Part shown: positions 18,670-39,700 of the stretch, piece by piece | How positions within the stretch are numbered: position 1 is the first letter of the stretch | How the letters are laid out: the number at the start of each line of letters is the position of its first letter | Assembly (NCBI GenBank): GCA_051362555.1 | Contig: CM120640.1 | Coordinates: 32,011,967-32,075,966, forward strand | Reading direction: 5' to 3' | Source: Lingula anatina | Lineage: Eukaryota; Animalia; Brachiopoda | DNA length: 64,000 nucleotides | Position numbers and translations under genes: made by a program | The notes under the pieces: generated by a model | Database searches by the model: none | What the model was told of the DNA's origin: nothing | Seen by the model: the letters and a program-made list of their open reading frames with translations, nothing else

Positions 18670-18723
<54 letters not shown>

Positions 18724-20507
18724 GTTGACTACTCACTGATGTTAATTGATATCATCTTAATTTTCAGTGCTTGTTTGTTTCTTTCCTGTTCTTGTCTGAT
18801 GTGAACTCTAATGTGGCGGATATATGCTGTGGTGTAGGGTTGAATGTGAAGTGTGAGAATTTCCTCCAGCATGTGCTCACCCCAGTGGCAGTGGCACACA
18901 AAACAGAAAATGTATTGGGTTTGCTATGTTTCATGCATTAGGATCAGAATAAGTATCAGGCAACTTTTCCGATGTTGACTAGGTGATGGCGGCTTTTTGA
19001 CTTGCACTTGAAGGCATCTGCCGGTCAAAATGCCCCATACACTCCTATCCTTCAGTAAAGTCTGCCGATCTCATTCTCATTTTAGTGTGTGCAAACATCA
19101 ATCGACATTTTCTGGGGTTGTGTTTTAAAGCATAGTAACCAACAGGCGTCATGTCTTCATTTTTTCTAGCAGCCATACGAGCTATTAATGAGGCTGGGGC
19201 TGACCTCCTCACAAAACGGAGGGTGGTCGAAATGAAGGAAAAACCAGGAGCTCTTTGGCACATATATGATGCTCAAGATGCAGACAAGATTCGGGACTTC
19301 CTAAACAAGGTTGCCAAGGAGACTGGGGAGGCCATTGAGCCTGACCATGATCCCATCCATGACCAGTCCTGGTACTTGAACAAAGAACTGAGGGAGCGTC
19401 TGCTGAAGGAGTATGGAGTCCAGGGCCACTGTATTGTGCAGTGCCTGGGGGATGCCATCTTTATTCCAGGGGGTGCCCCACATCAGGTAAGACACAACCT
19501 GATGCAAATCTCTGGTGTGAAAAAGGAATTAAGTCAGAGAAAAAAAAAAAAACTACTGATTTATGATTAGCTGTATATTCAAGACAATAAATGTATGGAG
19601 ACTTAAATAGAACAACACTGTAATTACGAAATTACATTCTGGTCTGTATAGAGCTTCACTTGAAAAAGATAAATTTCTCAGTACTTCTGTTTATTGCATT
19701 AGTGAACTGAACTTGGAACTCCTTGCACGAGAATACATTGCTTGCTTTCTTAGAAGCAGCCAATCATAGTCGGATGATTATTTTTTCAGAAAGCTATTAT
19801 GATCATTGGTTTTGTACACAGAAATGCAATAACAATGGTTTTCTGCGAAATTTAATGAAATAATGCTTTGATTATGCTTTTGATCGATTTTTCACAGGGG
19901 TACTATTCAGGGCACTTCATTAACTAGGCTTTTGACAATTCATTTGTGTTTTCTTTGTAGGTTCAGAATCTTCATAGCTGTATTAAAGTGGCTGAGGACT
20001 TTGTTTCGCCAGAACATCTTAACCATTGTTTCAAACTAACTCAGGAGTTCCGTCACTTGTCTGACACCCACAGTAACCATGAGGACAAACTACAGGTGAG
20101 AACTCCCTACCACTGGCTAGTTTTTAATGTAGGTTTTAAAGGGAAAAAAACGGCAGGAGTAAAGTTCCCTTTTAAATTATTTATTTATTTATTTATTTAA
20201 CCTTCCAAATATCAGGATCTGTTTTATTTTCATGTCCAAGAAGTTATGAAGTATTGTTAGAGATTCATATATAATTGGAGGGAAGATGAGATATGAAGTC
20301 ATAAAAAGAAATTTTGCGAACAATCTTATCTACTCTGGTTGTAATTGTTATGGAAAGCAATTTTAATGATTCAGAAGTAGATATCCTGGAACATAAAGAA
20401 TCAAATTGTCTCTTTTGTAGGTGAAGAACATCATCTTCCATGCTGTCAAGGATGCTGTGGCTGTCCTGCATGAAAACGACCCTAAGGATTATCTTGGCAA
20501 GAGATAA
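1833..20507 (+). CDS. KDM3: KDM3/JMJD1-family lysine (H3K9) demethylase, 5'-incomplete, 17 exons: 1833-3828, 6818-7001, 8618-8827 (or 8821), 9470-11545, 12048-12215, 12379-12586, 12752-12941, 15120-15220, 15469-15585, 15845-16120, 16376-16494, 16762-17794, 18041-18262, 18547-18663, 19170-19486, 19961-20095, 20421-20507
   Basis: GT-AG exons join in a consistent phase. Family motifs: [58 protein letters not shown] (C6 zinc finger), [102 protein letters not shown]. Confidence 0.95.
6818..7001 (+). CDS. KDM3: KDM3 exon (ER-rich coiled coil)
   Basis: tttcag|G GAC AGG ... CAG|gtaacc; encodes [20 protein letters not shown]. Confidence 0.85.
7709..7783. repeat. Imperfect (CA)n microsatellite; a second tract lies at about 7418-7468
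   Basis: Directly visible CA runs. Confidence 0.9.
8618..8827 (+). CDS. KDM3: KDM3 exon with tandem in-frame donors at 8821 and 8827
   Basis: Strong pyrimidine tract + cag|TAT GCT; open phase-0 frame [10 protein letters not shown]...EKMRM(VR)|gt. Confidence 0.75.
9470..11545 (+). CDS. KDM3: KDM3 large S/T/Q-rich exon
   Basis: 682-aa ORF bounded by ttttctag| and CAG|gtaat. Confidence 0.88.
12048..12215 (+). CDS. KDM3: KDM3 exon (K-rich)
   Basis: catag|GGA ... AAG|gtaaga; open phase-0 frame. Confidence 0.75.
12379..12586 (+). CDS. KDM3: KDM3 exon (K/R/E-rich)
   Basis: tacag|TCT ... G|gtaaat; open frame, phase matches the next exon. Confidence 0.75.
12752..12941 (+). CDS. KDM3: KDM3 exon (FLQDGPC...CREC...FCRFFAFRR)
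   Basis: Conserved KDM3 motif; canonical splice sites. Confidence 0.9.
15120..15220 (+). CDS. KDM3: KDM3 exon ([14 protein letters not shown]...)
   Basis: ttttcag|A ... G|gtaaat; continues the RRL motif. Confidence 0.85.
15469..15585 (+). CDS. KDM3: KDM3 exon ([21 protein letters not shown])
   Basis: Conserved motif; ttccag| and |gtaagt. Confidence 0.9.
15845..16120 (+). CDS. KDM3: KDM3 zinc-finger exon
   Basis: CDVC..CQKC..CLDC; LMLTQIIPG. Confidence 0.95.
16376..16494 (+). CDS. KDM3: KDM3 exon ([23 protein letters not shown])
   Basis: Conserved motif; canonical splice sites. Confidence 0.9.
16762..17794 (+). CDS. KDM3: KDM3 exon (LxxLL-like motifs, start of catalytic region)
   Basis: [34 protein letters not shown]. 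Confidence 0.92.
18041..18262 (+). CDS. KDM3: KDM3 JmjC exon
   Basis: [11 protein letters not shown]...[12 protein letters not shown]. Confidence 0.95.
18547..18663 (+). CDS. KDM3: KDM3 JmjC exon with HxD iron ligands
   Basis: [20 protein letters not shown]. Confidence 0.95.
18674..18718. repeat. (GA)n microsatellite in a KDM3 intron
   Basis: About 22 perfect GA units. Confidence 0.95.
19170..19486 (+). CDS. KDM3: KDM3 JmjC exon with distal His (NAGNAG acceptor tagcag)
   Basis: PGALWHIY...[11 protein letters not shown]...GAPHQ. Confidence 0.95.
19961..20095 (+). CDS. KDM3: KDM3 exon ([18 protein letters not shown])
   Basis: Conserved motif; canonical splice sites. Confidence 0.95.
20421..20507 (+). 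CDS. KDM3: KDM3 last coding exon
   Basis: [16 protein letters not shown]...KR, then TAA. Confidence 0.92.
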   Translation: MKNIIFHAVKDAVAVLHENDPKDYLGKR

Positions 20508-22269
20508 AAAAAGTTGATACCACACAGGCAGACTAAATGACAAAAGTTGACAACCAAATAATTCAAGACTGGAGCAAAAAATGGATACTGGAGCCTGGAT
20601 TGGCTGGTTCCATGAAGATGATGAAATCTGAAACTAGTGAATGTCAGAGTACCCTGCTGTGCTCTGAATGCAACTTGGAAGTGGAAATGGATTGCTTTCT
20701 ACACAGGGAATATCAGAAATAATGTATAAAGAAGTATATCGAAACCATATTTTGTGGAATTATACTACAACAACAGGATTATTTCTTATTTATGTGGAGT
20801 TATTTAAAGGCAGACTACATTAAAGTGCTGCAAAACTGGATTATTTAATGACTTGCAAAGCGATAGAGAAGAGGATTTTGGCTTTGGGCACACTATTGTT
20901 GTACTTATTATTGGGAACTTATTTCCCCCCCTGGAGCCGTCTTTGAATCTTGGCTGGCCAGGGTGGACTGGGGACTGCAGCTTGACTTAAGCAACATGGT
21001 GGACATCAATATTCACATTACGTGTGTCTTCAAGGAAGACAGACTGGTCATTAATTATTACGTTCATCTTTTCATTCATCATTGTCATCGGTGGCTTAAC
21101 ATTACTTTAAATGTGTGTGTGTGTAGTAGATTGGATCTTTTCTTTTTTTTTTTTTAATCATTATATAAAGTAAGACTATGTCTTATATACAGAGTACAAA
21201 TTCATCGAAGTAATATATGAGTACTATTGTATAACGTGACATTCTAAGAGTAAGATCACAATCCCTATTGGAGGATTGATCCAATATATAAAAGCACTGC
21301 CAGGGTGGGCTGGGGGGAGGGGCGCTTAGAGAAGTTATTTTCCAATCAGATAATGATTTTTCAATCAAATGATTTAATTATATACTGTTGCTGTTAGCAT
21401 TGGAGGTGTTGTATGAACTGTTGTAAAAATATCAAATCTTGGGGGAAATGTATCGAGAGACGTTCGTAAGAAAGCTTTCAGTGCCACTGATACTGTTGGA
21501 GCGAAGGATGTGAAAGCGTACAGAATAGTAGGGCAGAATTTTATTACGAGGTAAATGCCATGTTGTTGAGCTGTTTGAAATGTAGGTTTACATTGGCTAA
21601 GTTTAGTCTTAAATGTTTTGACTACTCTTATAAAGTAACAGTTTTACTTTTGATTAAATCGTCTTTTCTGACTTGGTTTCTAGTACTTGACAACACAGGA
21701 CTGGTGAAGTTCAGTGGAGTTTTTGAAGGAAATTCCTGTGAAATGTTATGAAGTTTTGTAAATAGGCGTTGTACATTTGTGCATAGTATAATGAGTGAGT
21801 TTAGACAAGCAGCAAAGCAGAGTTATACTTAAAAAGATAAGGGGGACATTTGAACTAGGAACTCAACACTGGAATCATTTTGGCCAGTGGATCTTTCAAA
21901 AGGGTCTGGCTTCATTTGCATTCTACTTTTTAAATAAGTTTTAGCTTCTAGTTGCCCTACTGTTGATAGCACCTTTGTCACTGTTGCTATGTTTGGGGTT
22001 GCTTCTGTTGAAAACTACATCATGGCTTCATATTGTTTCCAATTGTTTGCTGCAGATTTCTGGTCTCACTTGAAGTTGCTGCTTTGTTCACTGTTCAGAA
22101 AGATTTCTCTCTAGACTTGGCTGCTGTATATAAATAGGACTATTTTTATACAAAACTACTGTCAAGCATGTGTGTTAAGTGGTAATATACTTGTAATTTG
22201 CTATGAAAGAAGCAGAATGAAGCACACGTCTTGATTAGACTTTTAGAAAAACATTCTCCCACCATTCTT

Positions 22270-22275
22270 AATAAA
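22270..22275 (+). promoter_or_regulatory. Likely polyadenylation signal of KDM3 (3' UTR about 1.8 kb)
   Basis: AATAAA followed about 25 nt later by a GT/T-rich tract (tgttttgtctgtttttctttgtt). Confidence 0.55.
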
Positions 22276-22812
22276 AAAAATCTATTCATGATAAATGTTT
22301 TGTCTGTTTTTCTTTGTTATTTAAAAATAAATTTCTACATAAAGTGAATGACTAACAACGCAAATTATTTTTGCAAGCAATGTACAAATACTGTAAAAAG
22401 TTTCTCATACAAAAAAGCTAAAATAGCAAAAGTAACTGCAGTTTAATCTATTATGATGACAAAAACCTTTAAATGAAAGTGGCACAAAAAAATCATGTAA
22501 AAAAACATTTCACTTTTTCAAATAAAGAATGTCTTACATAAGAAACAAGGTAACTGTAAGAGACAAAAATATTCTACCTTGAAGCCATATTTACCTGTTC
22601 TAGCCTTTCTTAGATGATTAAGTAAAACAAATAATCCTCAAATATCTCTGAGAATTAAAAAAAAAAAGCACTTTAAGGGACTAAAGACATTCAAACTTAA
22701 CAGAATATACAAAAGTTTGACTTTCATGTAACTCTTAAAAAAAGGCTGTGCTTATCACGTATGTGTGCACCATGTCCATCTTCAAAAAATCTTTTTAAGA
22801 TTACTGTGACAT

Positions 22813-24328
22813 CTATGTCAAGTCCACCACATTTCTTGGACTCCCAGCTTCCTCCTCATCCAGCAAGACTGACACACATCTCTCCACATCAATATTACAA
22901 TCCAGCAGCGCAGAGATGGCTCTCTCCTGGCTGACATGGGGCAGAATACCCAACAATGTTTGGACTTTGTTGTCAAATTCCGCCTGAAGTCTTTCATTAT
23001 TACATTGTGCGGTCATACTGCAACTTTTATCGGAAGAGGTATTTGAACCATATTTCACCGAATGAAAATCTGTGAGTACACTAGAGGCCGTTTCTATCTT
23101 TGTTTTCTTAACACGTGGACCTTTGCTGATAGAATAGGTGGTGAGGTCTGGCAGACCTTGATTGCTGTCATCATCTGACAACTCGCCAAAAACGGTTCTT
23201 CTGACAGCGACCTGCCCCTTGCCGCCTTCTGGAGCACCAGTTGAAGGAGGTGACTTTGGGGAAGAACTGGCTCCCTTTCCTGGTGGGGTCTTCATCAAAT
23301 ATATCCTAGCACCTGTACTTGATGATGGAGTGCTGGCTGTTGAGGATGGTGTGACTTCTGGGGAGTTGAGGTGATAACTCATTTTAAGCTTTGGCACTCT
23401 CCTCGGGACTCCTGGTGAGGTTGCTTTCTGCTCCGTGATATTAGAGGAGTCAGAAAAGGCCTTCCTTGTTATTGTCCTTGCAGGTTTATGTTGTTTACCA
23501 GTCACTGAAACACTACTAGCGGCAAAATTGTCATCGTCAGCAATGACGCTCTCACTGCCTGCAGTGATTGCTTTATGTGGATTGCCTAATACCTTGGGAA
23601 CTGCGCTAGCAGAACCCAAAGATGATAAAACTGGTGGTCTTACCCATGCAGTTTTGTTATAGTTCTCACCAGTCTTAAAAGCACCTTGCATACTTGGCCC
23701 TGCCTTGATGGTGGTTGTTGGTTGGGCAGTGTCACTTTCTGGTTGGTATCTACCTATGATTTTCGGCAGCACTCCCTCCTGGATGTGAATTGTGGGGACT
23801 GGTTTTGGTTTCTTGACCAGAGGAACGTTGACCGATGTCCCTGGTGTAGAGTGATATTGGGCAAGTTGTATGGGGGCTTCATCTTCTTCAACAGTAAGGT
23901 AATTATTATTTTTCTCTTGAGGGCTTCTGCTGTTGTTGCTCTGTTGTGGTCTCACCTTCATAGTTTGTTTCTCTGTGACATTGGGCAATTTTTCATAGTC
24001 CCCTGACAACAACTGGCTCTTTCTGACAATACGATTTTCATCATCATCATCATCATTGCTTTCAGTGTGTTTCACTGAATCTCTAGTTTTGTGCTGGTCC
24101 ACACTCGCGTCAACCTGTAACTCATCTGCCCAATGTGACGTGCTGGGATCTTCAGACGTAACAGTAGCAGAGGTTTTGCGCCTTTTCTTGAAATTGTTGG
24201 CCTTTGCTGAGGTATGCCCCCTTTCTGAGCCTTCTGAACCCGTTGCAGCCGACTCTATCCGAGTGGACATAAATTGGTCTGGGTTAATGTCCTTCACTAT
24301 TAGGTCATCAAACTCACCACAGTCCGAC
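22813..24328 (-). CDS. MUS81-like last exon: disordered tail, CUE-like domain, SIM-like C-terminus
   Basis: 510-aa ORF entered at ttcacag|G; ends KVQTLLGILPHVSQERAISALLDCNIDVERCVSVLLD...NVVDLT*. Confidence 0.85.
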
Positions 24329-27300
24329 CTGTGAATTAAAAACAAAATTCAGTGCTCAGTGATCTTTCTGGCAAATAATAAGTACAACTTTAATCAAGGA
24401 CGAGACTGCCATTCAGTGAAAAAATCGGAAAAAAATGGTGTTAGGTCCAGGGTCTGCTCAAGTTAATGACATTTTTGACTCCCAAAAAGTCAGAAATCTG
24501 CCAATAATCGGGAAAATCTCATCCCTGTTTAATGTTTAATTTTCCTGAAAATTTTTTAACACCTTCCCTTGATGATACTAATGATGCTATGTCTTATATA
24601 AAACAATGTACCGTCTACATAAATAAATGTTGTTCTTACTTTAAACCAGAATTTCATACCAAAACTCCTTTTTTTTCAACTAAAACTACTGAAATTGTTA
24701 TCATATCATTTAATTTATTCGTTACAGATTAGAATGAAATTTTATCAGACTGTTAGCATCACTTTCCATTCAAATTTGAGAATATTTCAAACAGTTTCAT
24801 AGCCAAAAAAACAAGATGAACTTCTATTTTTATTCCTCAATGCGGAAATTTGAATTAAAAAACCTAAAAATAGCATTCACCTCTGCTGCAGTTCTGCAGT
24901 TATTATTGCCAGCATTTCCACAGTGTGACCAATGTTGTCCGTCTTCAAAACTTCAAAATCTTGGCAATTCTCCAGATCTTCAATAGCTTTCTACAAAGAA
25001 TAAGTGTAAGCATATGTTAAAAAACATGCCAGTTACAAATATATTAACCCCATGAAAACATATAACCAGAGAAGGCAGAAAATATTAACTTGAAGTCAAA
25101 AGCTATAAGAAAGAGTACTATCAGACAAGAATTTGTGGTGTTTTGAATCTTGTTTGATAAAAATAATGCACTACTCAGGCATAGTTTTCACTAACAATCT
25201 CAAATCTAAAGTTGTCTCAAATAATACATATAGTACAGCTGGTTGTTTATGAGAAAGTGTTCAAATAAGCTATTCCAACAAGTAACTAGAACGCACAATT
25301 CAATGAACTCAATATTCAGCAAAAATGGCTCCAACTGAAAAAAAAAAGGTACCAACATTTAACTGTAAAGCACTTGGGTAGCCACACTTGCCCACTCCAC
25401 CACACCCATCAGCACACTGCACCACAAACTGCTCTGGCCTGGACTCCAAGATGTACTTCAGCACAGCAGGAACGCCTTGGGACGTGAACGCTGCCTTCCA
25501 TTTCACCATATCCCGGCGCTGCTTCCCATACCTGCCATCTACTAGGCTTTTTGCCAGGTCATCTAAAAAAAAGGCACAAGTAGCTAGGGAATAAAATTTT
25601 ATATACCCTCGATTTCCAGGAATATCCCATTAAGTTCTTCTGGGTACTGTAGACAGGGTTCAGTGAGGGCTTTGAAATTTGGAATCCAAATTCACTTTCT
25701 TACACAGACAGGCAGTCTAGGTTCCATGTGATAAAAAAAACATTGAAATAGGGAGTCCAAGAGGCAGCTGGATGGTAACATGGCCAATGCCTTGTCTGTA
25801 ATCAAATTTTAGGCCTCTGTAGCAGAAATTCGCAGACAGACATGGTTAAAGAATACGATAATAGTTGTGCCTCTGCCATTTGACTGAACTGAGTCCTTAT
25901 TGGAAGAGTGCTCGCCTCAGTCAGGACAGGCCATGGGATCAGTTCACATCTCACAACTTGTGCTGTAAGGTTACCAGAATTTAAAGAATGTTTTTATGTA
26001 GTCAACAGGTGCTAATGACCAGACAAAAGGTATTATATGACAGACACAAAACATTTACTAACTCCCAACCCTTGGGACTGTTGTGAATAAAATATACTTG
26101 ATATTCAGGTATTTATTAACTAAATGGAGAAGAATTTTGCTCCAAGGCAATCTGTAATGCTTAAAATCAAATTAAGCCAAAGATACAATTCTGCTGTTAA
26201 AATAACAATAGTAGGGCTGGAAATAAAGCATAATATCAAAATACAACTCACTGTCATCCATGAGGACAAACACTGAGCCCCAGTGCTTGGTCACCAAACA
26301 AATTATTTACCTGCTCTCTTCCTCTCTACCAGTAGTGGCATCACTCTCTCCTCACCCCCACATCTCAGCAACCAGGAATAATCTCCACACGCCAACTTTT
26401 TGGTCCGATATCTCAGTCCCGTTTGTTTGATCAGGTCTATCAACTAAAATACAGCAAATATACAAAAATGATTCTAAATAGACTTATCTGGTAAATTTTT
26501 CTCTTCTCAAATATCAATATTACTTCGACAAGAAGCAAAAAGTTATTTCTGTTACATTCTTGCCTTTTTCTTTAACAAATACTAATATCTTCATTTACGG
26601 GAATATACCCAGATGTAAAAGAAAACATTATAATAACTAATACTCAGAATTCAAAGATTGAAAAATTTCCAGATTACAGCTTTTTTGCCTAATCAAGAGA
26701 GCCCACTCTAAGACTAACCTGTCCAAGTCCTCTGTGGTCACCTCCAAACTCCTGTGTGTCCACCAAAATGACCAGGCTACAATGTTATAAAACACTTGAA
26801 CAGATGAGATCAATAATCCACCACCAAATACCCTAAAAAAAGGCTTGAAAGCAATAACTGAGAAGTCATATTACACTTTGCACAGGGAGTTTATTTGGTT
26901 ATGAAATTTCGCCAAGACAAACCGAAAATAAGGATAAAACTTAAACATTATGTATTTTGAACATATCTAAAACAAAAATTACATGCATGCATGTGCATGT
27001 AGATGACCAGGCCCGTAGCCAGGGGGGGTTCGGGGGGTTCGAAAGAACCCCCCCTTTTGTCGGAAAAGGTCCATTTTGGGTAAAATTTCATCTAGGTTCA
27101 CATAAGTTTCATTATAAAAGGTCCACTTTTACAGAAAAAGAACCCCCCCTTTTGAATTTCCTGGCTGGATACGGGCCTGTGACATCTGTTATTTCGTGAA
27201 AAGTTTATGCTCAATTCCAGCCATATAATATTTGTCTAAATCAAAAATTGCTAGACAAGTTTGTTACACACCCATCAGAACCGTCATCATTAGTGTAAAG

Positions 27301-29418
27301 AGTTCCATACTGCTGATCCTCCTCTTTCTCCACCATATTGCTACCCGAGTGTTGTGTGGAGCTAGGCTGGAATGTTGCTGCAAATAAACCAACATAAACC
27401 TGTTAACAAAGATGGCTTTTTCATAGAACATCTTCCAAAGTTAAACAAATTTGTTGCAATGTAAAGCAAGACTGTTCAGTGTTTTGACCATGTATCTTGG
27501 TCTGCTCTCAAATGAAATCTTTAATTGAAATATCAAACTTTGCATTAATTCTTGGACTGAAACAATTACATTTCTCTTTGAAAATACCATAAAAGGAAAG
27601 GACTTGAATTTGTTTTTAAACTGTTGATATTCACCCCTCAGTCTGGTAGCCTCTTCTTCCCCAAGTGGCAGCAATTGATAGACTGGTGTTTGAGCCAAAG
27701 ACCTCTTCTTGATCAAGTCTCTGTTACACAGGACGTTCAACCTCCAAGCTGCCATGCAGAATGCTAGAAACATACATACATACATAACAAACATTTCAAG
27801 CAAAATGATAAAGCAATATCTGAGAGCGAACACGAAATAAAGTTGATATTGTATTTCCACATTTTCAATGCAGCAAAATATTCAACTAGATTATTATGTG
27901 TATAATGATACTGAAATCAACTGTTTTTTTTTTTCATTTGGACAAAAAGAATAATATGTACTTGTGTGAGACTAGGAGGGTTTACCACACAACTAATTCA
28001 ACATTACCTTTAGGTATGTGGTTAAACTTTTCCTCACACAACTTTGCAGCTTCTTCTATAAGCATAGCCTCTGGTATCAAAATGTTTTCCTTTGGACTAA
28101 AATAATCAATTTAAAGTAAATTAATAAATAAAAGAAAAAAATCTCTAAATGTAATTTTCTTTTAGAGCAACCATGACACAAAAGGGGGGGGGGGGGGGGG
28201 GGGGGGGGGGGCTCAAATAAAAGAGTTAACTGATGACACTGTATAGCAGACAAATAACTTTGACACAAATAATAATAATATCTAACAATTGGTTTATCAG
28301 CTGTAATTCTACTATGTATATAGTATATAACGAAACTGAAAAATATGCCCTATTGTAACATTCATGTCTTATTTTTACCTGTTATCTTGAAGAGATTGTA
28401 CTTCAGTGAGATTCAACATGGCCACAAGGAACGCAGGAGCTGAACTCACAAACATGCCAGCAGGTGGTGCTTTATTGCTTAGGTGTTTGAATCCCATCAT
28501 CTCCTTCAACTTTTCCGACAATTCTTTCCCTATCTGAAGACACACACCAAATAAATGTTATGATCAGAACAAAACAAATGCAAAGCCATATTAAAAGGAT
28601 ATATTTCAGTTATATGTATGTCAATCCAAACATTAATAATGTGTTGCATTAGCAGCTAAAATATCTCTTGAAATACTCACAGATCTTACTGTCCAATGTA
28701 ATATGTAGAATTAAGTTATACAATATAAAAATAAGTCTTGTATTCAAACTTTCAAGAATTTTCATAACCTATTTAAATGGTTTAGTACTCTTCATTTTAT
28801 AGCCTTTACAGCACAATTTAAAATAACAAAACAAAGTATCCTATGGCTCACCCCCTCTAATTTGGCTGCCTGGTTGACAGATTTCACAGGTTCCTGGGAC
28901 AGCTCCAGGGAAATGATGGCTTTGGATGTCCATTCTGCTGCTGATTTCAAATAAACACAGTTCCTCTGGTATCCCTCATACTCAATCAAACCTCGGATGA
29001 ACTTGTACCTCTGGAAAGAATACGATACCAACAACTTCATACATTACTTGTAATGTAAAATGAAGGTGTACTGGTAGTAAAGGCAAAATATGAGCAGTAC
29101 ATACCTTGCATCATTTTCAAACTTGTACAGATAAATAATGTGGAATGATAAATAATGGAAACGATAATTTAAGACTACAACTTCACGAGCGTGGGAAAAA
29201 ATTCAATATTTCGCAAGTTTTAACTTAGCGGGTCAACAGGGAATGTTGCGAGTGAAATGAAACTAGTTACTACTGTTTGAAACAGACAACTAGCACGACC
29301 CTTACAATTACTATTCTCCTCATAATCTCGATGCTGAACTTGATAGATATATATATAATCACGACATTTACGAAACCAATATACTCACGAGGTCGAGATA
29401 ACTCCTTCCTCGTTTCAT
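22813..29418 (-). CDS. MUS81-like ERCC4/XPF-family structure-specific endonuclease, about 896 aa, 11 exons: 29418-29389, 29010-28852, 28533-28379, 28096-28008, 27763-27635, 27377-27272, 26776-26719, 26443-26311, 25562-25357, 24990-24881, 24328-22813
   Basis: All exon phases are consistent (2691 nt total). HhH: AAKLEGIGKELSEKL. Winged helix: SSAPAFLVAML..EAAKLCEEKF..AAWRLNVLCNRDLI..YQLLPLGEEEA. ERCC4: LVILVDTQE..LACGDYSW..VERKRADDLAKSLVDGRYGKQR..YILE. The start codon and the 25357 donor are less certain. Confidence 0.85.
25357..25562 (-). CDS. MUS81-like exon 9 (ERCC4 continued)
   Basis: DDLAKSLVDGRYGKQRRDM...LKYILE...CADGCGGVGKCGYP. Confidence 0.85.
26311..26443 (-). CDS. MUS81-like exon 8 (ERCC4 catalytic GD...ERK)
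   Basis: YRTKKLACGDYSWLLRCGGEERVMPLLVERKRA. Confidence 0.9.
27008..27179. mobile_element. MITE-like element in an intron of the MUS81-like gene
   Basis: Terminal inverted repeats CAGGCCCGTA / TACGGGCCTG, TGAC on both flanks (possible 4-bp TSD), internal repeated GAACCCCCC and AAAAGGTCCA. Confidence 0.7.
27635..27763 (-). CDS. MUS81-like exon 5 (winged helix)
   Basis: MAAWRLNVLCNRDLIKKRSLAQTPVYQLLPLGEEEATRL. Confidence 0.85.
28184..28212. repeat. Poly-G tract
   Basis: About 29 consecutive G. Confidence 0.9.
28379..28533 (-). CDS. MUS81-like exon 3 (end of HhH, start of winged helix)
   Basis: IGKELSEKLKEM...SSAPAFLVAML; canonical splice sites. Confidence 0.85.
28852..29010 (-). CDS. MUS81-like exon 2 (N-terminal HhH domain)
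   Basis: ttccag|AGG ... GGG|gtgagc; KAIISLELSQEPVKSVNQAAKLEG. Confidence 0.85.
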
Positions 29419-31213
29419 TTTAACTCGTTTGCACGTCTTTTCAACCTTCAATTATAGGAGATCAGAAGACGGGCTTACACCTCTCAGAGCGTGGCCCTCT
29501 TTTCTACAACATCACCAAATCCAGAAATCCTTCCCCTTCATTCTTGTCGACTGCCGCACCCCTCCCTATTTTAAAAGCAATGTGTATTTTGTGCATTTCA
29601 GAGCAGATTTCATAAAGACTAAAGAATGAATGGGATGAATGAATAAGCCTAAACCTAACACCAAATGAAAACATGCAGCTTTATGAAGACGACTGTTTTT
29701 TTTTCCTGAAAAATAAAACTGTTTAGATTAAAACGTTAAATTGGTTAGGTCCTTTCTATTTTGACATCCTGCTGTTTTGTCTTAATCTTGACTTGTTCAC
29801 AAACCGTCAGCAAGATGTCAAAATATGAAGGATCCAAACAATGAACATTTTTCATTAGGCCTACCACTATTTACAGATGCGATTAATTTATTTTCACAAC
29901 CATTTTTGGTGAGACAGAACGAGTGCAGTTTAATGTAATATGTCTAAACGTACCTTTATAAGCTTTGGATCATACAAAATGCATTTTAGATACGTAAAGA
30001 TATAGATCGTCTGCTTCCTAAAGCATTTTTCAATTATTTTGATTGATTCGTTTTATAAGGTAAAATACAGATCGGACAAATAGCCATCTTTGGGCTACAG
30101 CAGGCATATCTCTACCGAGGATCCAAACTGATGTATATTTTTACTAAGATAAGTAGGTCTATCAGTCCCGACAGAAATTGTACTTTTTTTTAAATGATCG
30201 AAATTGATAACATACTAAAATAGGGTCTTCAATGTACTTTTTTTCATACCAATGTAAGTGCAGTTCGATTCTAGATCTAAAATGGTCAGTTTGGAAAGTC
30301 AGTTTCTGATGTTTAGAATGGATAGTTTCAGGCAGTGATGTAGCCTACGCAATGGAGCCTGTGCTGGACGAATAAAAAACGCACATCACTGATTCTCAAT
30401 ATATATATACATGTATATAGATCTATGTAACACTTTTTTTATTTTATTAAAAGTAGTGGAATAATTGCTTGTCCAAGTGAAACCCTACTAGCATCAGTCT
30501 TGCAACTTAAATCACAGAAAAAAACGATCAAACGCATAAAAAAAACTAAATTTTGAACCTTCGTTACTGTCGTTCGCAGCATGCTCACATTCTATAATAG
30601 ATCTAGTTATTTTCCCAAAGTAGGCAGTTTGCAACTCGTCAGGAAGCGAGTATGATGTTTAACACCCGCAGAAATGTCTAGAAAGTTTATTTCAAATGAC
30701 ACAATAAATAGCTTGCAGCTACTTTCGCGCTGTCCCCTGGCTTTTAGAAATAGAAAAAAAAGCCTTCGTGACGACTTTTGCCGCAGGTCGATATTTTTAG
30801 TTGATTTTTTAAAAATATTTTAGCTATTAATAAAATCTTCAATTTATTTACTTCCACGTTAAGTAAGACGATATGGTGACAGGCCACAGTTAAATGTTTG
30901 ACAAGAAACACGCCAAAACAGCGTTTCCTTAGAAAGTAATTTGCAAAACCTTCACTAAAAGCCACTATGAAAAAAAAAACATACTTTCAGTTGAGAACAA
31001 AATGTTCCAGTTAAATAAACACACATCCCGTAATGCCCTTTAGTGTTAGCAAACGTGCAAATATTATCCAAAAAGGTTGTTGATTTCAAAACTTTTGTTA
31101 CTTAAACCTTCGTCATTGAATACAAAAACTGTTGCATACTAGCAAGGCATGAGTCGGAAAATGTTTGCATGATTACACAAAAAGCACTTTCTGTCACCAG
31201 AGTTTTAGAAAAT

Positions 31214-31464
31214 CAGTGGCGGATTTAGAGGGGGGGTCCTGCCCCCCCCCCCCCCCCCTTCGGTTTCTGAAAAATATATCACACCAGTATTCCCCTCTTG
31301 AAATAAAAAATTGACTTGCTGAATCATAGTTCTAAACAGTACCAAAGGGCACCGTTTACCCTCCAAAATACCAAAAAAATTTCGGGGCCCTTGAGCAGTC
31401 CCCATCTCGCGTGCGAGACCTGTCGTTCCGGACCCCCCTACAAATAATCCTGGATCCGCCCCTG
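31214..31464. mobile_element. MITE-like element
   Basis: Imperfect TIRs CAGTGGCGGAT / ATCCGCCCCTG with G/C-rich subterminal tracts; no clear TSD. Confidence 0.6.
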
Positions 31465-32320
31465 AAACCCATCAATTTAGGAAATTTATCTTTAATAAGA
31501 ATATAAAAATGTATCGGCTAAAATATTTGTTTTCATAGTTTTTTGTCTATTGAGAGTAAGGGGATAGAAGTACGGGAATGATTAGACCTTCGATTACCCA
31601 TTTTTCTCAATCCCCGTTATTTAGATTGACATCACTAAATAGGCTTCATCTTTAAGTAGCAAAACCACCTATTCTACGCACATCACACCATTGAAATCGA
31701 AAATTAATTAACGACACGTTTCAACAACTGTTATTTCTTTAAGTCCAATACTTAATTTCTCAGATCATTGGCCTTACCTCCATTTTCAGCGGGGGGCACC
31801 AACTGTAACTCTCTGCCGTCTATCCATGGCCTGGCCACCATATCCCACGATGTCCCCGCCTTGTTTTCTTGCTGCATATCTCTAGCGGGTATTGAACGTT
31901 TAGCCTAAGTATCACTTACATTAAATTCCATGTGTTTAAAAATGAAAACTCCACGCCAGTCAGAAAAATATCCTTCGTATAAGCTGTGTAATTTCATATT
32001 AAGGTTATTTCATCATTTTGGCTTTCTGCTTTTTTTACTTGTCACCCCAACCCCTGAACCCGTTGAGGCAGATTGTTTAACTCAATCTTCAGCTAAAAGT
32101 ATACTTTTTTATTTTGGTTATTAGAGACTCAGTCTTCTGATGAAATGTACAATGTCCTCTTCATTACATGGTTGTATGATTTTTGTTAATCCTTTTTAAA
32201 ATAAAAGACCATTTGGGTAGGCCTAATTACAGGAGATTTAGATTATCAAAATATATCCATATTTCTGTATCCAACTTATAAGGAAAGAATTGAAAGAAGG
32301 AAAAAGAAATTGTAGACGAC

Positions 32321-32465
32321 CAGGCCTGTACCCAGCCATTTCAAAGGAGGGGTGTCATTTCCTGCAAAAGTTGACCTTTTAGCATGAAATCTCCGTGTAC
32401 GTAGGCCTGGGTTACCCTGAGCAACCTTCTTCGTACGACCTCCCCCCTTTCCGGCTACAGACCTG
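32321..32465 (-). mobile_element. MITE-like element related to 27008-27179, opposite orientation
   Basis: TIRs CAGGCCTGTA / TACAGACCTG; contains AAAAGTTGACCTTTT, the reverse complement of the AAAAGGTC(C/A)ACTTTT motif in the other copy. Confidence 0.6.
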
Positions 32466-32518
32466 TTTATTTTGGTAATTAAACAACATAAAAGATCACA
32501 GGAGCTGACGGAGGTTAA

Positions 32519-32570
32519 TCCCCCCCCCCACCCCCCCCCACCCCCCCCCCCCCCACACACACACACACAA
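32519..32570. repeat. Poly-C / (CA)n tract
   Basis: Directly visible. Confidence 0.85.
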
Positions 32571-33749
32571 CAAACACGAAAGTTTTTTTTAAATCATGCC
32601 AGTTCTGAACAGTGAAAAGTGGGACTATGGATCCCTGCATGCCATCTTCTTTTAAGCAATTATAAGAATTAGTTAAAATATTTAAGCAAATGTAAAAAGT
32701 AACTAAAGCATTAAATCTCACCAAGCATTTTCCTTTCGTTATCCTTTCTCCTTGCAAAACTAAAGCTACCAAAAACTCCACATGAATGTTTATAGCAAAA
32801 ATGTATTATCACTTTATCTTTATTTCCATCATCTGTGAAACAAGATATGAAATGGAAGTTTCTTCTATATTGTGGATAAGTGTTCCAGTGTACGCGGACA
32901 AGGTCGTTCACTAATGGCCTGGGGCAGGTTAGTAAACTTCAGGTTGATATCATGTCAACAAGATGCAAGGACACTGTCAATAATAGGGGAGAAGTAAAAA
33001 ACTATTATATCACTGATTATTATCTCCGAAATAAATGCGTGTTTTCCCCTCTCTAAACAAAAAAGTTAAGGTATGAAAACGCTGAATGCACTTCAAACGT
33101 AGATATATATATACAATACAATAAGAGCGGGCAATTGTGAACATGTGATCACATTACAGCACACTGAGCAGCGGGATGGACTTATTGCGTTGCACTCCAG
33201 AGGAGAAAAAGGACGCGAAGTGAGAGTGATTTTCTTCGGCCAACCGCCTTCAAATCTCATGTGATCCTACGCCAATGCATCGCACTTGAGGATAGTTTCT
33301 TTACTAACACAAAACACCCAATGTTTCGTCTTTTTCCCATGGTGTGCTTCTGTGAATTCGACTCTTCAATCCATGCGGACTCATCGCTCTGGGAAATGTA
33401 CATGTACAAAAAAACACAGCTCTCAGCCCGGACGTCTAATAACCGCCGCATAGAAATTATTGGGAAACGGACAGCAATCCAAGCTACTGGAGATGGGTTA
33501 GTGCCACCATGTCATAGTCTTTTCATTTCTGCCATATTCCTCCTCTGCCCATGTTTGCCTTTTGAGGCTAGAACCAAAACCGTCATATGTCCTATTTAGA
33601 TCAACCTCATCGAGTTTTGTTGTCGTAGTTCTCTTCTAAGGCTGATTTGCATTTTCTCGTTTTTGTATTGTCTTGCATTTGTAATGTACTGTGTCAATAA
33701 CAAACTAAAAAAAATCTCATCTCATTTTCCTTTCCTTTTTGAGGGGGTG

Positions 33750-36700
33750 GAGGAGGGAGGGTACGTAAATTGAAAAAGTTCTAATCTCATTCTAATTTCT
33801 TTTTACAGGACATAGAAGATGATGAGTGCCAACCATCGAATATTGACTTCTCTTCGGATCAAGAATTTAAGGTTAGTAAATTTCATTTTTTTGGAGGGGA
33901 TTGGTAAATTGACTTAAAATCTAATCTAGTTTTATTTCTTTTTTACAGAACATTGAAGACAATGAGCGACTCTACCCAGACATAGACTTCACACATCGAT
34001 AGAAGTTAAGGTTAGTAATCTTTTTATTTGGGGGAGGGGGGGGGAGGATTGCGACAGGGTAAATTAAAAAGATCTAACCTCATTCCTATTTCTTTTACAG
34101 GACATAGAAGATGATGAATGCCTACCAGCCTACCAGCCTACCATCAAGCATTGACTACTCTTTGGATCAAGAATTTAAGGTTAGTAAATTTCATTTTTTT
34201 GGAGGGGATTGGTAAATTGACTTAAAATCTAATCTAGTTTTATTTCTTTTTTACAGAACATTGAAGACGATAAACGACTCTACCCAGACATAGACTTCAC
34301 ACATCGATAGAAGTTAAGGTTAGTAATCTTTTTATTTGGGGGAGGGGGGGGAGGATGGGGGAGAGGTAAATTAAAAAAGATCTTACCTCATTCCTATTTC
34401 TTTTACAGGACATAGAAGATGATGAATGCCTACCAGCCTACCAGCCTACCATCAAGCATTGACTACTCTTTGGATCAAGAATTTAAGGTTAGTAAATTTC
34501 ATTTTTTTGGAGGGGATAGGTAAATTGAATAAAAATCTAATCTAGTTTTATTTCCTTTACAGAACACAGAAGACGATGAAAGACTCTACCCAGACATAGA
34601 CTTCACACATCGATAGAAGTTAAGGTTAGTAAACTTTTTATTTGGGGGAGGGGGGGGGGAGGATGGGGGAGAGGTAAATTAAAAAGATCTAACCTCATTC
34701 CTATTTCTTTTACAGGACATAGAAGATGATGAATGCCTACCAGCCTACCATCAAGCATTGACTACTCTTTGGATCAAGAATTTAAGGTTAGTAAATTTCA
34801 TCTTTGGAGGGGATAGGTAAATTGAATTAAAATCTAATCTAGTTTTATTTCTTTTACAGAACAAAGAAGACAATGAAAGACTCTACCCAGACATAGACTT
34901 CACACATCGATAGAAGTTAAGGTTAGTAAACTTTTTATTTGGGGGAGGGGGGGGGGAGGATGGCGGGAGAGGTAAATTAAAAAGATCTAACCTCATTCCT
35001 ATTTCTTTTACAGGTCATAGAAGATGATGAATGCCTACCAGCCTACCAGCCTACCATCAAGCATTGACTACTCTTTGGATCATGAATTTAAGGTTAGTAA
35101 ATTTCATTTTTTTGGAGGGGATAGGTAAATTGAATAAAAATCTAATCTAGTTTTATTTCTTTTTACAGAACATAGAAGACTATGAGCGACTCTACCCTGA
35201 CATAGAATTCACACATCGATAGAAGTTAAGGTTGGTAAACTTATTATTTGGGGAAGGGGGGGATGTGGGGAGAGGTAAATTAAAAAGATCTAACCTCATT
35301 CCTATTTATTTTACAGGACATAGAAGATGATGAATGCATAGAATACGATGAGCGACTCTACCCAGACACAGACTTCACACATCGATAGAAGTTAAGGTAA
35401 GTAAACTTTTTATTTGGGGGAGGGGGGGGGGGAGGATGGGGGAGAGGTAAATTAAAAAGATCTAACCTCATTCCTATTTCTTTTACAGGACATAGAAGAT
35501 GATGAATGCCTACCAGCCTACTAGCCTACCATCAAGCATTGACTACTCTTTGGATCAAGAATTTAAGGTTAGTAAATTTCATTTTTTGGAGGGGATAGGT
35601 AAATTGAATTAAAATCTAATCTAGTTTTATTTCCTTTACAGAACACAGAAGACAATGAAAGACTCTACCCAGACACAGACTTCACACATCGATAGAAGTT
35701 AAGGTTAGTAAACATATTATTTGGGGGAGGGGGGGGATGTGGGGAGAGGTAAATTAAAAAGTTCTAACCTCATTCCTATTTCTTTTACAGGACATAGAAG
35801 ATGATGAATGCATAGAAGACGATGAGCGACTCTACCCAGACACAGACTTCACACATCGATAGAAGTTAAGGTTAGTAAACTTTTTATTTGGGGGAGGGGG
35901 GGGATGGGGGAGAGGTAAATTAAAAAGATCTAACCTCATTCCTGTTTCTTTTACAGGACATAGAAGATAATGCATGCATAGAAGACGATGAGCGACTCTA
36001 CCCAGACACAGACTTCACACGTCGATAGAAGTTAAGGTTAGTAAACTTTTTATTTGGGGGAGGGGGGGGGGAGGATGGGGGAGAGGTAAATTAAAAAGTT
36101 CTAACCTCATTCCTATTTCTTTTACAGGACATAGAAGATGATGAATGCATAGAAGACGATGAGCGACTCTACCCAGACACAGACTTCACACATCGATAGA
36201 AGTTAAGGTTAGTAAACTTTTTATTTGGGGGAGGGGGGGGGAGGATGGGGGAGAAGTAAATTAAAAAGATCTAACCTCATTCCTATTACTTTTACAGGAC
36301 ATAGAAGATGATGAATGCATAGAAGACGATGAGCGACTCTACCCAGACACAGACTTCACACATCGATAGAAGTTAAGGTTAGTAAACTTTTTATTTAGGG
36401 GAGGGGGGGGGGAGGATATGGGAGAGGTAAATTAAAAAGATCTAACCTCATTCCTGTTTCTTTTACAGGACATAGAAGATGATGTATGCATAGAAGACGA
36501 TGAGCGACTCTACCCAGACACAGACTTCACACATCGATAGAAGTTAAGGTTAGTAAACTTTTTATTTGGGGGAGGGGGGGGGGGGAGGATGGGGGAGAGG
36601 TAAATTAAAAAGTTCTAACCTCATTCCTATTTCTTTTACAGGACATAGAAGATGATGAATGCATAGAAGACGATGAGCGACTCTACCCAGACACAGACTT

Positions 36701-39700
36701 CGCACATCGATAGAAGTTAAGGTTAGTAAACTTTTTATTTGGGGGAGGGGGGGGAGGATATGGGAGAGGTAAATTAAAAAGATCTAACCTCATTCCTATT
36801 TCTTTTACAGGACATAGAAGATGATGAATGCATAGAAGACGATGAGCGACTCTACCCTGACATAGACTTCACACATCGATAGAAGTTAAGGTTAGTTAAC
36901 TTTTTATTTGGGGGAGGGGGGGGGGGTAAGATGGCGGGAGAGGTAAATTAAAAAGATCTAACCTCATTCCTATTTCTTTTACAGGACATAGAAGATGATG
37001 AATGCCTACCAGCCTACCAGCCTACCATCAAGCATTGACTACTCTTTGGATCAAGAATTTAAGGTTAGTAAATTTCAATTTTTGGAGGGGATAGGTAAAT
37101 TGAATTAAAATCTAATCTAGTTTTATTTCCTTTACAGAACACAGAAGACGATGAAAGACTCTACCCAGACATAGACTTCACACATCGATAGAAGTTAAGG
37201 TTAGTAAACTTTTTATTTGGGGGAGGGGGGGGGGGAGGATGGGGGAGAAGTAAATTAAAAAGATCTAACCTCATTCCTATTACTTTTACAGGACTTAGAA
37301 GATAATGAATGCATAGAAGACGATGAGCGACTCTACCCAGACACAGACTTCACACATCGATAGAAGTTAAGGTTAGTAAACTTATTATTTGGGGGAGGGG
37401 GGGGGGGAGGATGGGGGAGGGGTAAATTAAAAAGATCTAACCTGATTCCTGTTTCTTTTACAGGACATAGAAGATGATGTATGCATAGAAGACGATGAGC
37501 GACTCTACCCAGACACAGACTTCACACATCGATAAAAGTTAAGGTTAGTAAACTTTTTATTTGGGGGAGGGGGGGGGGAGGATGGGGGAGAGGTAAATTA
37601 AAAAGTTCTAACCTCATTCCTATTACTTTTACAGGACATAGAAGATGATGAATGCATAGAAGACGATGAGCGACTCTACCCAGACACAGACTTTACACAT
37701 CGATAGAAGTTAAGGTTAGTAAACTTATTATTTGGGGGAGGGGGGGGAGGATGGGGGAGAGGTAAATTAAAAAGATCTAACCTCATTCCTGTTTCTTTTA
37801 CAGGACATAGAAGATGATGTATGCATAGAAGACGATGAGCGACTCTACCCAGACACAGACTTCACACATCGATAGAAGTTAAGGTTAGTAAACTTTTTAT
37901 TTGGGGGAGGGGGGGGAGGATGGCGGGAGAGGTAAATTAAAAAGATCTAACCTCATTCCTATTTCTTTTACAGGACATAGAAGATGATGAATGCCTACCA
38001 GCCTACCAGCCTACCATCAAGCATTGACTACTCTTTGGATCAAGAATTTAAGGTTAGTAAATTTCATTTTTTGGAGGGGATAGGTAAATTGAATTAAAAT
38101 CTAATCTAGTTTTATTTCCTTTACAGAACACAGAAGACGATGAAAGACTCTACCCAGACATAGACTTCACACATCGATAGAAGTTAAGGTTAGTAAACTT
38201 TTTATTTGGGGGAGGGGGGGGGGAGGATGGGGGAGAAGTAAATTAAAAAGATCTAACCTCATTCCTATTACTTTTACAGGACATAGAAGATGATGAATAC
38301 ATAGAAGACGATGAGCGACTCTACCCAGACACAGACTTCACACATCGATAGAAGTTAAGGTTAGTAAACTTTTTATTTAGGGGAGGGGGGGGGGAGGATA
38401 TGGGAGAGGTAAATTAAAAAGATCTAACCTCATTCCTATTTCTTTTACAGGACATAGAAGATGATGAATGCATAGAAGACGATGAGCGACTCTACCCAGA
38501 CACAGACTTCACACATCGATAGAAGTTAAGGTTAGTAAACTTTTTATTTGGGGGAGGGGGGGGGGGGAGGATGGGGGAGAAGTAAATTAAAAAGACAACC
38601 TCATTCCTATTACTTTTACATGACATAGAAGATGATGTATGCATAGAAGACGATGAGCGACTCTACCCAGACACAGACTTCATACATCGATAGAAGTTAA
38701 GGTTAGTAAACTTTTTATTTGGGGGAGGGGGGGGGGATATGGGAGAGGTAAATTAAAAAGATCTAACCTCATTCCTATTACTTTTACAGGACTTAGAAGA
38801 TAATGAATGCATAGAAGACGATGAGCGACTCTACCCAGACACAGACTTCACACATCGATAGAAGTTAAGGTTAGTAAACTTATTATTTGGGGGAGGGGGG
38901 GGGGAGGATGGGGGAGGGGTAAATTAAAAAGATCTAACCTGATTCCTGTTTCTTTTACAGGACATAGAAGATGATGTATGCATAGAAGACGATGAGCGAC
39001 TCTACCCAGACACAGACTTCACACATCGATAAAAGTTAAGGTTAGTAAACTTTTTATTTGGGGGAGGGGGGGGGGGAGGATGGGGGAGAGGTAAATTAAA
39101 AAGTTCTAACCTCATTCCTATTACTTTTACAGGACATAGAAGATGATGAATGCATAGAAGACGATGAGCGACTCTACCCAGACACAGACTTTACACATCG
39201 ATAGAAGTTAAGGTTAGTAAACTTATTATTTGGGGGAGGGGGGGGAGGATGGGGGAGAGGTAAATTAAAAAGATCTAACCTCATTCCTGTTTCTTTTACA
39301 GGACATAGAAGATGATGTATGCATAGAAGACGATGAGCGACTCTACCCAGACACAGACTTCACACATCGATAGAAGTTAAGGTTAGTAAACTTTTTATTT
39401 GGGGGAGGGGGGGGAGGATGGCGGGAGAGGTAAATTAAAAAGATCTAACCTCATTCCTATTTCTTTTACAGGACATAGAAGATGATGAATGCCTACCAGC
39501 CTACCAGCCTACCATCAAGCATTGACTACTCTTTGGATCAAGAATTTAAGGTTAGTAAATTTCATTTTTTGGAGGGGATAGGTAAATTGAATTAAAATCT
39601 AATCTAGTTTTATTTCCTTTACAGAACACAGAAGACGATGAAAGACTCTACCCAGACATAGACTTCACACATCGATAGAAGTTAAGGTTAGTAAACTTTT

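Follow-up and report, generated by a model that had tools for sequence, protein, structure and literature searches.

A tandem array of exon-like units in Lingula anatina, probably a non-coding offshoot of a repeat-protein gene family

Introduction

Alpha satellite exemplifies satellite DNA that is organized into higher-order repeats. Repeat-protein genes can expand by tandem copying of exon cassettes, as in the two-exon Olduvai units of NBPF and the two-exon kringle IV-2 unit of LPA. In the SNORD115 and SNORD116 clusters, host genes arrayed in tandem have repeated non-coding exons and carry small RNAs in their introns. Here, we analyze a stretch of 64,000 nucleotides from the brachiopod Lingula anatina (assembly GCA_051362555.1, contig CM120640.1, positions 32,011,967–32,075,966, forward strand), called the window below, which contains a tandem array of exon-like units that resembles each of these systems in part. 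The array occupies positions 33741–64000 on the plus strand, spans more than 30,000 bases, and continues past the window end.

We favor the reading, with a probability of about 0.7, that the array is not a working gene but a nearly silent, non-coding offshoot of a family of repeat-protein genes. Nearly all of its units are closed by stops and its own locus yields hardly any RNA reads. Relatives with intact 63-nt exons of one of its unit types are transcribed and spliced elsewhere in the genome.

Results

Organization of the array

The array is composed of three types of exon-like unit, designated A, B, and C, which are separated by intron-like spacers. A tolerant search of the array identifies 170 units, comprising 29 A, 30 B, and 111 C. 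They start in the order ABABABABAB, followed by one C and then by AB pairs separated by runs of C. Tandem Repeats Finder reports a period of 171 nt over 35647–63961, with 171 copies, 83% matches, and a score of 36036. Self-similarity peaks at offsets of 989, 1159, 1330, and 1498 nt, which match 305 + n × 171, or one AB pair plus four to seven C monomers. Spacer lengths are tightly clustered across the array. In its fixed-period head-to-tail monomers, its length of tens of kilobases, its diverged edge and homogenized core, and its higher-order periodicity, the array has the properties of a satellite. Both the array itself and its near-universal splice-like signals exceed chance.

The edge zone (33809–35316, plus strand) contains the five consecutive AB pairs and is more diverged than the core. 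The core (35397–64000, plus strand) consists of 171-nt C monomers interrupted by AB pairs and runs past the window end. At the left boundary, 68 nt in front of the first unit (33741–33808, plus strand) are homologous to the 3′ part of the B-to-A spacer and end in an acceptor-like ttttacAG. The local alignment score of this homology is 69, compared with a maximum of 27 in 200 shuffles. The array begins mid-spacer at 33741, and a search upstream of unit 1 for further B-like or decayed units found none. Just left of the array, a 25-nt stretch (33702–33726) resembles the acceptor-proximal part of the spacer, with a score of 30 against a shuffle maximum of 27. Judged from this likeness, the stretch may be the trace of an older partial copy.

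The A and B units

Unit 1 (33809–33871, plus strand) is an A unit of 63 nt that contains one copy of the octamer GCCTACCA. It is flanked by ttttacAG on the acceptor side and GTTAGTAA on the donor side, and its open frame 0 reads DIEDDECQPSNIDFSSDQEFK. Seven positions, all located in nt 18–47, differ from the A form of the array. Later A units contain one to three additional tandem copies of the octamer. A single copy is present in one unit, two copies in four units, three in 25 units, and four in one unit. The second A unit (A2, 34101–34179, plus strand; 79 nt) has three tandem copies of GCCTACCA and no open frame. When its two additional copies are removed, such a unit reads DIEDDECLPSSIDYSLDQEFK. 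In the sole 87-nt A unit (59379–59465, plus strand), which carries four copies (Tandem Repeats Finder: 59398–59429, period 8, 4 copies), the frame is regained and open.

The first B unit (B1, 33949–34010, plus strand) is 62 nt long and, on unit comparison and translation, has stops in all three frames. Frame 0 reads NIEDNERLYPDIDFTHR and then a stop, and the tail of frame 2 reads HTSIEVK, flush with the donor. A 2-nt excess in the CACACA run splits the unit into these two frames. The A and B modules can be aligned as peptides in one frame.

The first A-to-B spacer (33872–33948, plus strand; 77 nt) is intron-like, bounded by GT..AG, and letter-identical to 34180–34256. The first B-to-A spacer (34011–34100, plus strand; 90 nt) is also intron-like and contains G-runs.

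An earlier sequence-only reading of the window had described unit 1 as an open 63-nt unit, and its coordinates and frame-0 translation are confirmed. It was also right that later A units are broken by additional GCCTACCA octamers, the skipping of which restores DIEDDECLPSSIDYSLDQEFK, and that B is a 62-nt unit with a TAG, in which a CA excess in the CACACA run separates two halves. Its proposal that the array edge preserves the ancestral module stands in part. There is one open A unit at the edge, which is the most diverged part of the array, but B1 at the same edge is already a stop-bearing unit of 62 nt.

The open frame of unit 1 alone is not beyond chance, as frame 0 is also open in 3830 of 20,000 shuffles of its letters (19%). 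It is the splice signals that carry the case for an exon origin.

The C monomer

The dominant unit, C, with 111 of the 170 copies, was left undescribed by the sequence-only reading. The first C unit (35317–35396, plus strand; 80 nt) consists of A nt 1–21 joined to B nt 4–62 and is flanked by spacers of the B-to-next type. The A head is identical at all 21 positions and the B body at 54–56 of 59 positions. The C-to-C spacer matches the B-to-next spacer at 90 of 91 positions, compared with 60 of 90 for the A-to-B spacer. The combination of an A head, a B body, and B-to-next spacers on both sides suggests that C arose by a deletion of about 136 nt. By alignment, the lost segment would have comprised the A tail together with the A-to-B spacer and the opening 3 nt of B.

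The exon columns that clearly vary across 98 C monomers (13, 17, 48, 53, 60, and 61) split 2:2:2 over the codon positions. This split is no sign of coding constraint inside the array.

Splice signals, spacers, and G-runs

The motif TTAAG is directly followed by GT at 177 of its 178 sites in the array, and 177 acceptor-like sites are present. These signals resemble the RNA-verified sites of the neighboring genes, two of which, at 18262 and 26443, are likewise GTTAGT donors. The array spacers measure 74–92 nt, compared with 244–748 nt for RNA-verified introns nearby.

Spacer folding is no better than that of shuffled sequences, with z values of −0.14, +0.30, +0.30, and +0.63; the value for the first A-to-B spacer is +0.30. 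A role of the spacers as mirtrons or as hosts of small nucleolar RNAs was rejected for this reason. Rfam gives no match in 33000–38000 at E up to 1, nor in the whole window at the gathering score.

The sense strand of the array contains 126 G-quadruplex motifs and its opposite strand has none, whereas the rest of the window has two on each strand. Every long spacer has at least four G-runs, and the GC skew is about +0.25 along 33741–64000. Poly-G reads of the RNA runs stick to G-run spots and mimic expression there (bins 35402–35458 and 35725–35743).

Coding capacity and search for protein relatives

Stops close all three frames in 164 of the 170 units. The other six, namely the 63-nt unit, four 71-nt units, and the 87-nt unit, have one open frame each. 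The main unit lengths are 62, 79, and 80 nt, and lengths divisible by three occur only in the single 63-nt unit and the single 87-nt unit. When the locus is examined as a live gene, no frame is open across units, no transcript of its own spliced from unit to unit is seen in the five partly read RNA runs, and no protein relative is found with a 40-residue query.

The sequence-only reading had pointed to codon-position bias in A/B divergence as a check. Differences over the three codon positions are 6:2:8 between A1 and B1, 5:4:5 between array A and core B, and 0:4:3 between A1 and array A; the counts are small and none is significant.

Protein relatives were sought with the 40-residue stop-to-stop frame around unit 1 (33785–33904), of which 21 residues are the module. 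No relative was found among proteins of near length. Among longer proteins, six candidates share words with the query and none reaches E up to 10. A search of 1.84 billion representatives gave no relative at E up to 0.001. In a metagenome scan with the insert-free A head, one match was found on a GC-rich contig without repeat units and was dismissed as chance. In the accessible part of the literature, the A/B module is undescribed and the peptide words DIEDDEC, IEDDECL, and IEDDECQ are absent. Left of the array, a 143-codon open stretch (33168–33599) has no Pfam match and no RNA depth.

RNA reads at the array locus

Nine raw-read RNA runs are assigned to the same species by their species label, and five of them (X1, X2, X4, X7, and X8) were used. 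About 6–26% of each run was read, and the reads are polyA-selected. X1, X4, X7, and X2 were mapped to 14201–34200. X7, X1, X4, and X8 were mapped at a likeness of 90 to 35231–35790, which contains one C, one A, and one B unit. X1, X2, and X4 are strand-specific.

Both flanking genes are covered to a depth of up to 45 and spliced with clean GT..AG joints, indicating that the RNA runs fit this genome. In the array-edge bin (33544–34200), the depth is 0.1–1.6 in either orientation. None of the 15 joints listed, of 23 in total, falls in this bin. No RNA depth is found in 32210–33543 in X1, X4, X7, or X2. Inside the array, only 33, 15, 3, and 56 reads map to 35231–35790 in X7, X1, X4, and X8, respectively. 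The numbers of reads at least 99% alike are 0, 0, 0, and 5, though at least 170 copies could contribute. The array locus is close to silent in the sampled RNA.

Spliced reads from related copies

Most of the mapped reads are 90–95% alike to the array, which indicates related copies at other places as their source; these may include copies past the window end. Their joints coincide with unit boundaries. One joint links the end of B with the start of A (35700 to 35486) and is supported by nine reads at seven starts in X8 and by three reads in X7. A joint from the tail shared by C and B to the A start (35393 to 35486) is supported by six reads in X8. A 3-nt offset of the joint indicates CAG, not AAG, as the last three letters of the expressed exons.

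In addition, A-to-A joints are seen in 15 reads of X8 and three reads of X7. These reads exit the A head at 35515, continue with 29 or 34 other letters, and re-enter at the A start. The two exon forms, of 27+34+2 and 27+29+7 nt, are both 63 nt long and contain no octamer insert. Hand translation of the head and the read letters gives DIEDDECLP followed by SNVDYSSDQDFK, open in frame 0. A second A variant in X7, seen as a loose end in five reads, is also open in frame 0. In the stranded run X1, nine reads, all in sense orientation, cover the A tail and the first spacer bases. They derive from yet another copy, of which 61 letters are known; on hand translation these are open in the frame flush with the donor.

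The joints in the related copies use the same AG and GT sites, so that the array, like an unprocessed pseudogene fragment, keeps the exon–intron boundaries of its parent. The absence of the octamer insert from the expressed 63-nt A exons indicates that the phase-0 module of 63 nt is the more ancient form of A and that transcripts from some locus contain it.

Divergence of the edge and the core

The first six AB pairs carry 24, 11, 3, 7, 20, and 10 substitutions relative to the consensus pair. Another 21 pairs follow, of which 16 carry 0–2. Unit 1 and A2 differ at seven sites within 30 nt, yet the next spacer of 77 nt is identical. This patchy divergence beside an unchanged spacer argues for conversion tracts rather than uniform age and suggests that short conversion tracts lie at the array edge.

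The seven sites that distinguish unit 1 from array A were compared by hand with the expressed 63-nt exon. Unit 1 matches this exon at two sites (codons 11 and 16) and array A at four, and all three differ at one. By this comparison, unit 1 retains the old length and part of the old states, and it has also drifted.

Neighboring genes and other features of the window

A gene for a histone demethylase of the KDM3/JMJD1 type is located at 1800–22200 on the plus strand. It encodes a JmjC domain (Pfam, 5e-10) and scores 152.7 bits to human KDM3B. It has a zinc-finger exon at 15835–16161 and long low-complexity exons at 1811–3832 and 9470–11554, and it is expressed and spliced in all four runs mapped to this region (X1, X4, X7, and X2).

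A second gene lies on the minus strand at 22800–29500 and contains a 511-codon exon (22813–24348) with no Pfam match. In X1 and X2 it is spliced and well covered, to a depth of up to 50, whereas X4 and X7 contain almost none of it, and it is thus probably tissue-restricted.

A short dispersed repeat at 26999–27152 reaches a depth of about 54 in both orientations in X7, with more than 1000 reads whose ends continue into other sequence. An odd joint within it, from 27027 to 27116 (GT..AT), is supported by 370 reads. The repeat has no Rfam match in the whole-window search at the gathering score, and looks like a multi-copy element expressed from other loci. At 31242–31464, a repeat-like patch lies beside a long C/G homopolymer. 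Reads of X1, X2, X4, and X7 end there, with loose ends that are poly-C or unrelated.

Discussion

Nature of the array

The array is best read as a satellite that originated from a gene; it can equally be called an unprocessed pseudogene fragment that was amplified. Compared with the expressed A exons, its disabling changes are octamer expansions of 8, 16, or 24 nt, in addition to the C fusion and the stops. The sequence-only reading had derived the satellite from a gene for an acidic repeat protein, which the data support in part. In favor of this derivation, the relatives are spliced at the predicted boundaries and have open 63-nt A exons; the missing protein relatives and the stop in the B-like exons speak against it. 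The search for intact copies that it had proposed succeeded in RNA as far as open 63-nt exons spliced A to A, and yielded no intact multi-exon protein-coding gene. Its view that the amplified copies were broken by slippage applies to A, as the octamers are absent from expressed A exons. It fails for B: the expressed B-like reads share the CACACA excess and the TAG, so that the B break is not confined to the amplified copies and predates the array.

Several observations weigh against the derivation of the array from a repeat-protein gene family, or against its silence. The parent gene is putative, being deduced from its copies. None of the three protein searches returned a relative of the module. 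The silence holds for the partly read, polyA-selected samples only, and the five X8 reads that are at least 99% alike could derive from this array. The expressed B-like reads retain the CACACA run and the TAG stop and include 30 nt or more of the upstream spacer, and the joints listed for X7, X1, X4, and X8 on 35231–35790 include none from A to B. Given the retained stop and the missing A-to-B joint, the transcripts that were seen may be non-coding as well, or another decayed array may be their source. One A variant with 35 letters (two reads) would give a 64-nt exon and break the frame. Finally, variation in the exon part of the C monomers is about half of that in the spacer (0.019 versus 0.0375), a comparison that is biased by the G-run and by the unit-picking pattern.

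Proposed history

The steps from gene to satellite may have been as follows. The parent gene would have had short phase-0 exons of about 20–21 codons, with A of 63 nt and B probably of 60 nt, and short introns. B would have gained 2 nt in its CA run before the copies of the array split from those seen in RNA. Unequal exchange may then have multiplied an AB pair of about 305 nt into a tandem series, whose start lies within a spacer at 33741. Slippage would have taken the GCCTACCA octamer in A from one to mostly three copies, a form that homogenization could have spread. The putative deletion of about 136 nt would have fused the A head to the B body and produced the 171-nt C monomer. C may finally have out-multiplied the rest, giving blocks of one AB pair and four to seven C. 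The splice signals would persist because the copies are young and homogenized, not because they are used.

Alternative explanations

The alternative that survives best, though an unlikely one, is a spliced non-coding RNA gene, in which splicing links repeated non-coding exons and either the spliced product or the introns function as RNA. Such a gene would account for the splice signals kept at 177 sites, for the splicing of relatives at unit boundaries despite stops in B-like exons, and for the location of all 126 G-quadruplex motifs of the array on the sense strand. However, almost no reads come from the array locus in the four runs of either mapping, Rfam has no match under either of the settings used, and the spacers fold no better than shuffled sequences (z −0.14 to +0.63). 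Recent amplification alone can also explain why the signals persist.

A live protein-coding gene, with broken units skipped or decoded in an unusual way, is very improbable. The open frames of unit 1, the four 71-nt units, and the 87-nt unit fit it, as do the intact splice signals and the open 63-nt A exons in RNA. It would have to cope with 164 of 170 units stopped in all three frames, next to genes that use the standard code and ordinary GT..AG introns. No upstream exon is found, there is no RNA depth in 32210–33543, and no protein relative is known from the searches. This explanation is close to refuted.

Equally improbable is an accidental likeness to exons, in which an ordinary satellite has a monomer that happens to hold AG and GT motifs. 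The unremarkable openness of unit 1, matched by 19% of shuffles, agrees with this idea. Moreover, the 177 splice-like sites are not independent, since all copies descend from one or two founders. The idea is contradicted by the RNA of related copies, in which splicing uses precisely these AG and GT sites, and the alignment of A and B as peptides in one frame also argues against it.

A small protein encoded by each AB pair, through splicing of the 79-nt A to the 62-nt B into a 40-codon frame that ends at the TAG of B, can practically be dismissed: the 16-nt insert does bring the ATGATG in the A head into the reading frame of the old tail, A frame 1 reads through MMNAYQPTSLPSSIDYSLDQEFK to the exon end, B frame 0 continues with NTEDDERLYPDIDFTHR to its stop, and 23 pairs have this form (e.g., 34101–34318), but no A-to-B joint is listed in any run on 35231–35790, the dominant C units close the frame at once, and the ATGs are a by-product of GAT GAT codons.

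A non-coding offshoot of a repeat-protein gene family remains our preferred account of the array. A more far-reaching version of it is tentative, and we consider it doubtful as a whole. In this version, an undescribed, lineage-restricted family encodes an acidic, cysteine-bearing repeat protein built from 63-nt phase-0 exons, which would be active elsewhere in the genome and have no relative among the 1.84 billion representatives. The array would be its runaway offshoot, on the way to becoming a G-quadruplex-rich satellite with about 177 usable splice-site pairs.

Implications

The origin of most satellites is unknown, but here the founder, a two-exon cassette with its introns, is still readable. 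The steps from gene to satellite are legible within one array, including frame-breaking slippage of the CA run and of the octamer, fusion of A and B into a 171-nt monomer, and diverged copies at the edge. Sister copies are still spliced at the same sites, so that the transition will be testable once the parent locus is found. The array is also a trap for annotation: with about 170 excellent splice-site pairs in view, gene-prediction programs may report a giant gene that does not exist.

Comparison with known systems

Like satellites with higher-order repeats, the array has 171-nt head-to-tail monomers over more than 30 kb, a homogenized core with a diverged edge, and composite blocks. It differs from them in that the monomer is an exon-plus-intron module with splice signals of the working type, and in that its relatives are spliced in RNA. 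With unprocessed (duplicated) pseudogene fragments it shares a retained intron–exon structure with splice signals, frame-breaking insertions, and stops. Such fragments are single dead copies, whereas the array comprises about 170 tandem copies of a one- or two-exon piece.

Two further systems consist of repeated exon–intron units. As in the cassettes of NBPF and LPA, a two-exon unit, here A and B, has been copied in tandem together with its introns, and the short symmetric exons would allow in-frame expansion. In the array, however, 164 of 170 units have lost the frame, the units are far shorter (171–305 nt), and the locus is nearly silent in the sampled RNA. The SNORD115 and SNORD116 clusters likewise have repeated exon–intron units with kept splice sites and no coding frame. 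Unlike them, the array has no small-RNA family and no stable spacer fold, and its spacers of 74–92 nt leave little room. Set beside these systems, the array is a fresh example of an already known kind of event, in which the individual steps are unusually legible.

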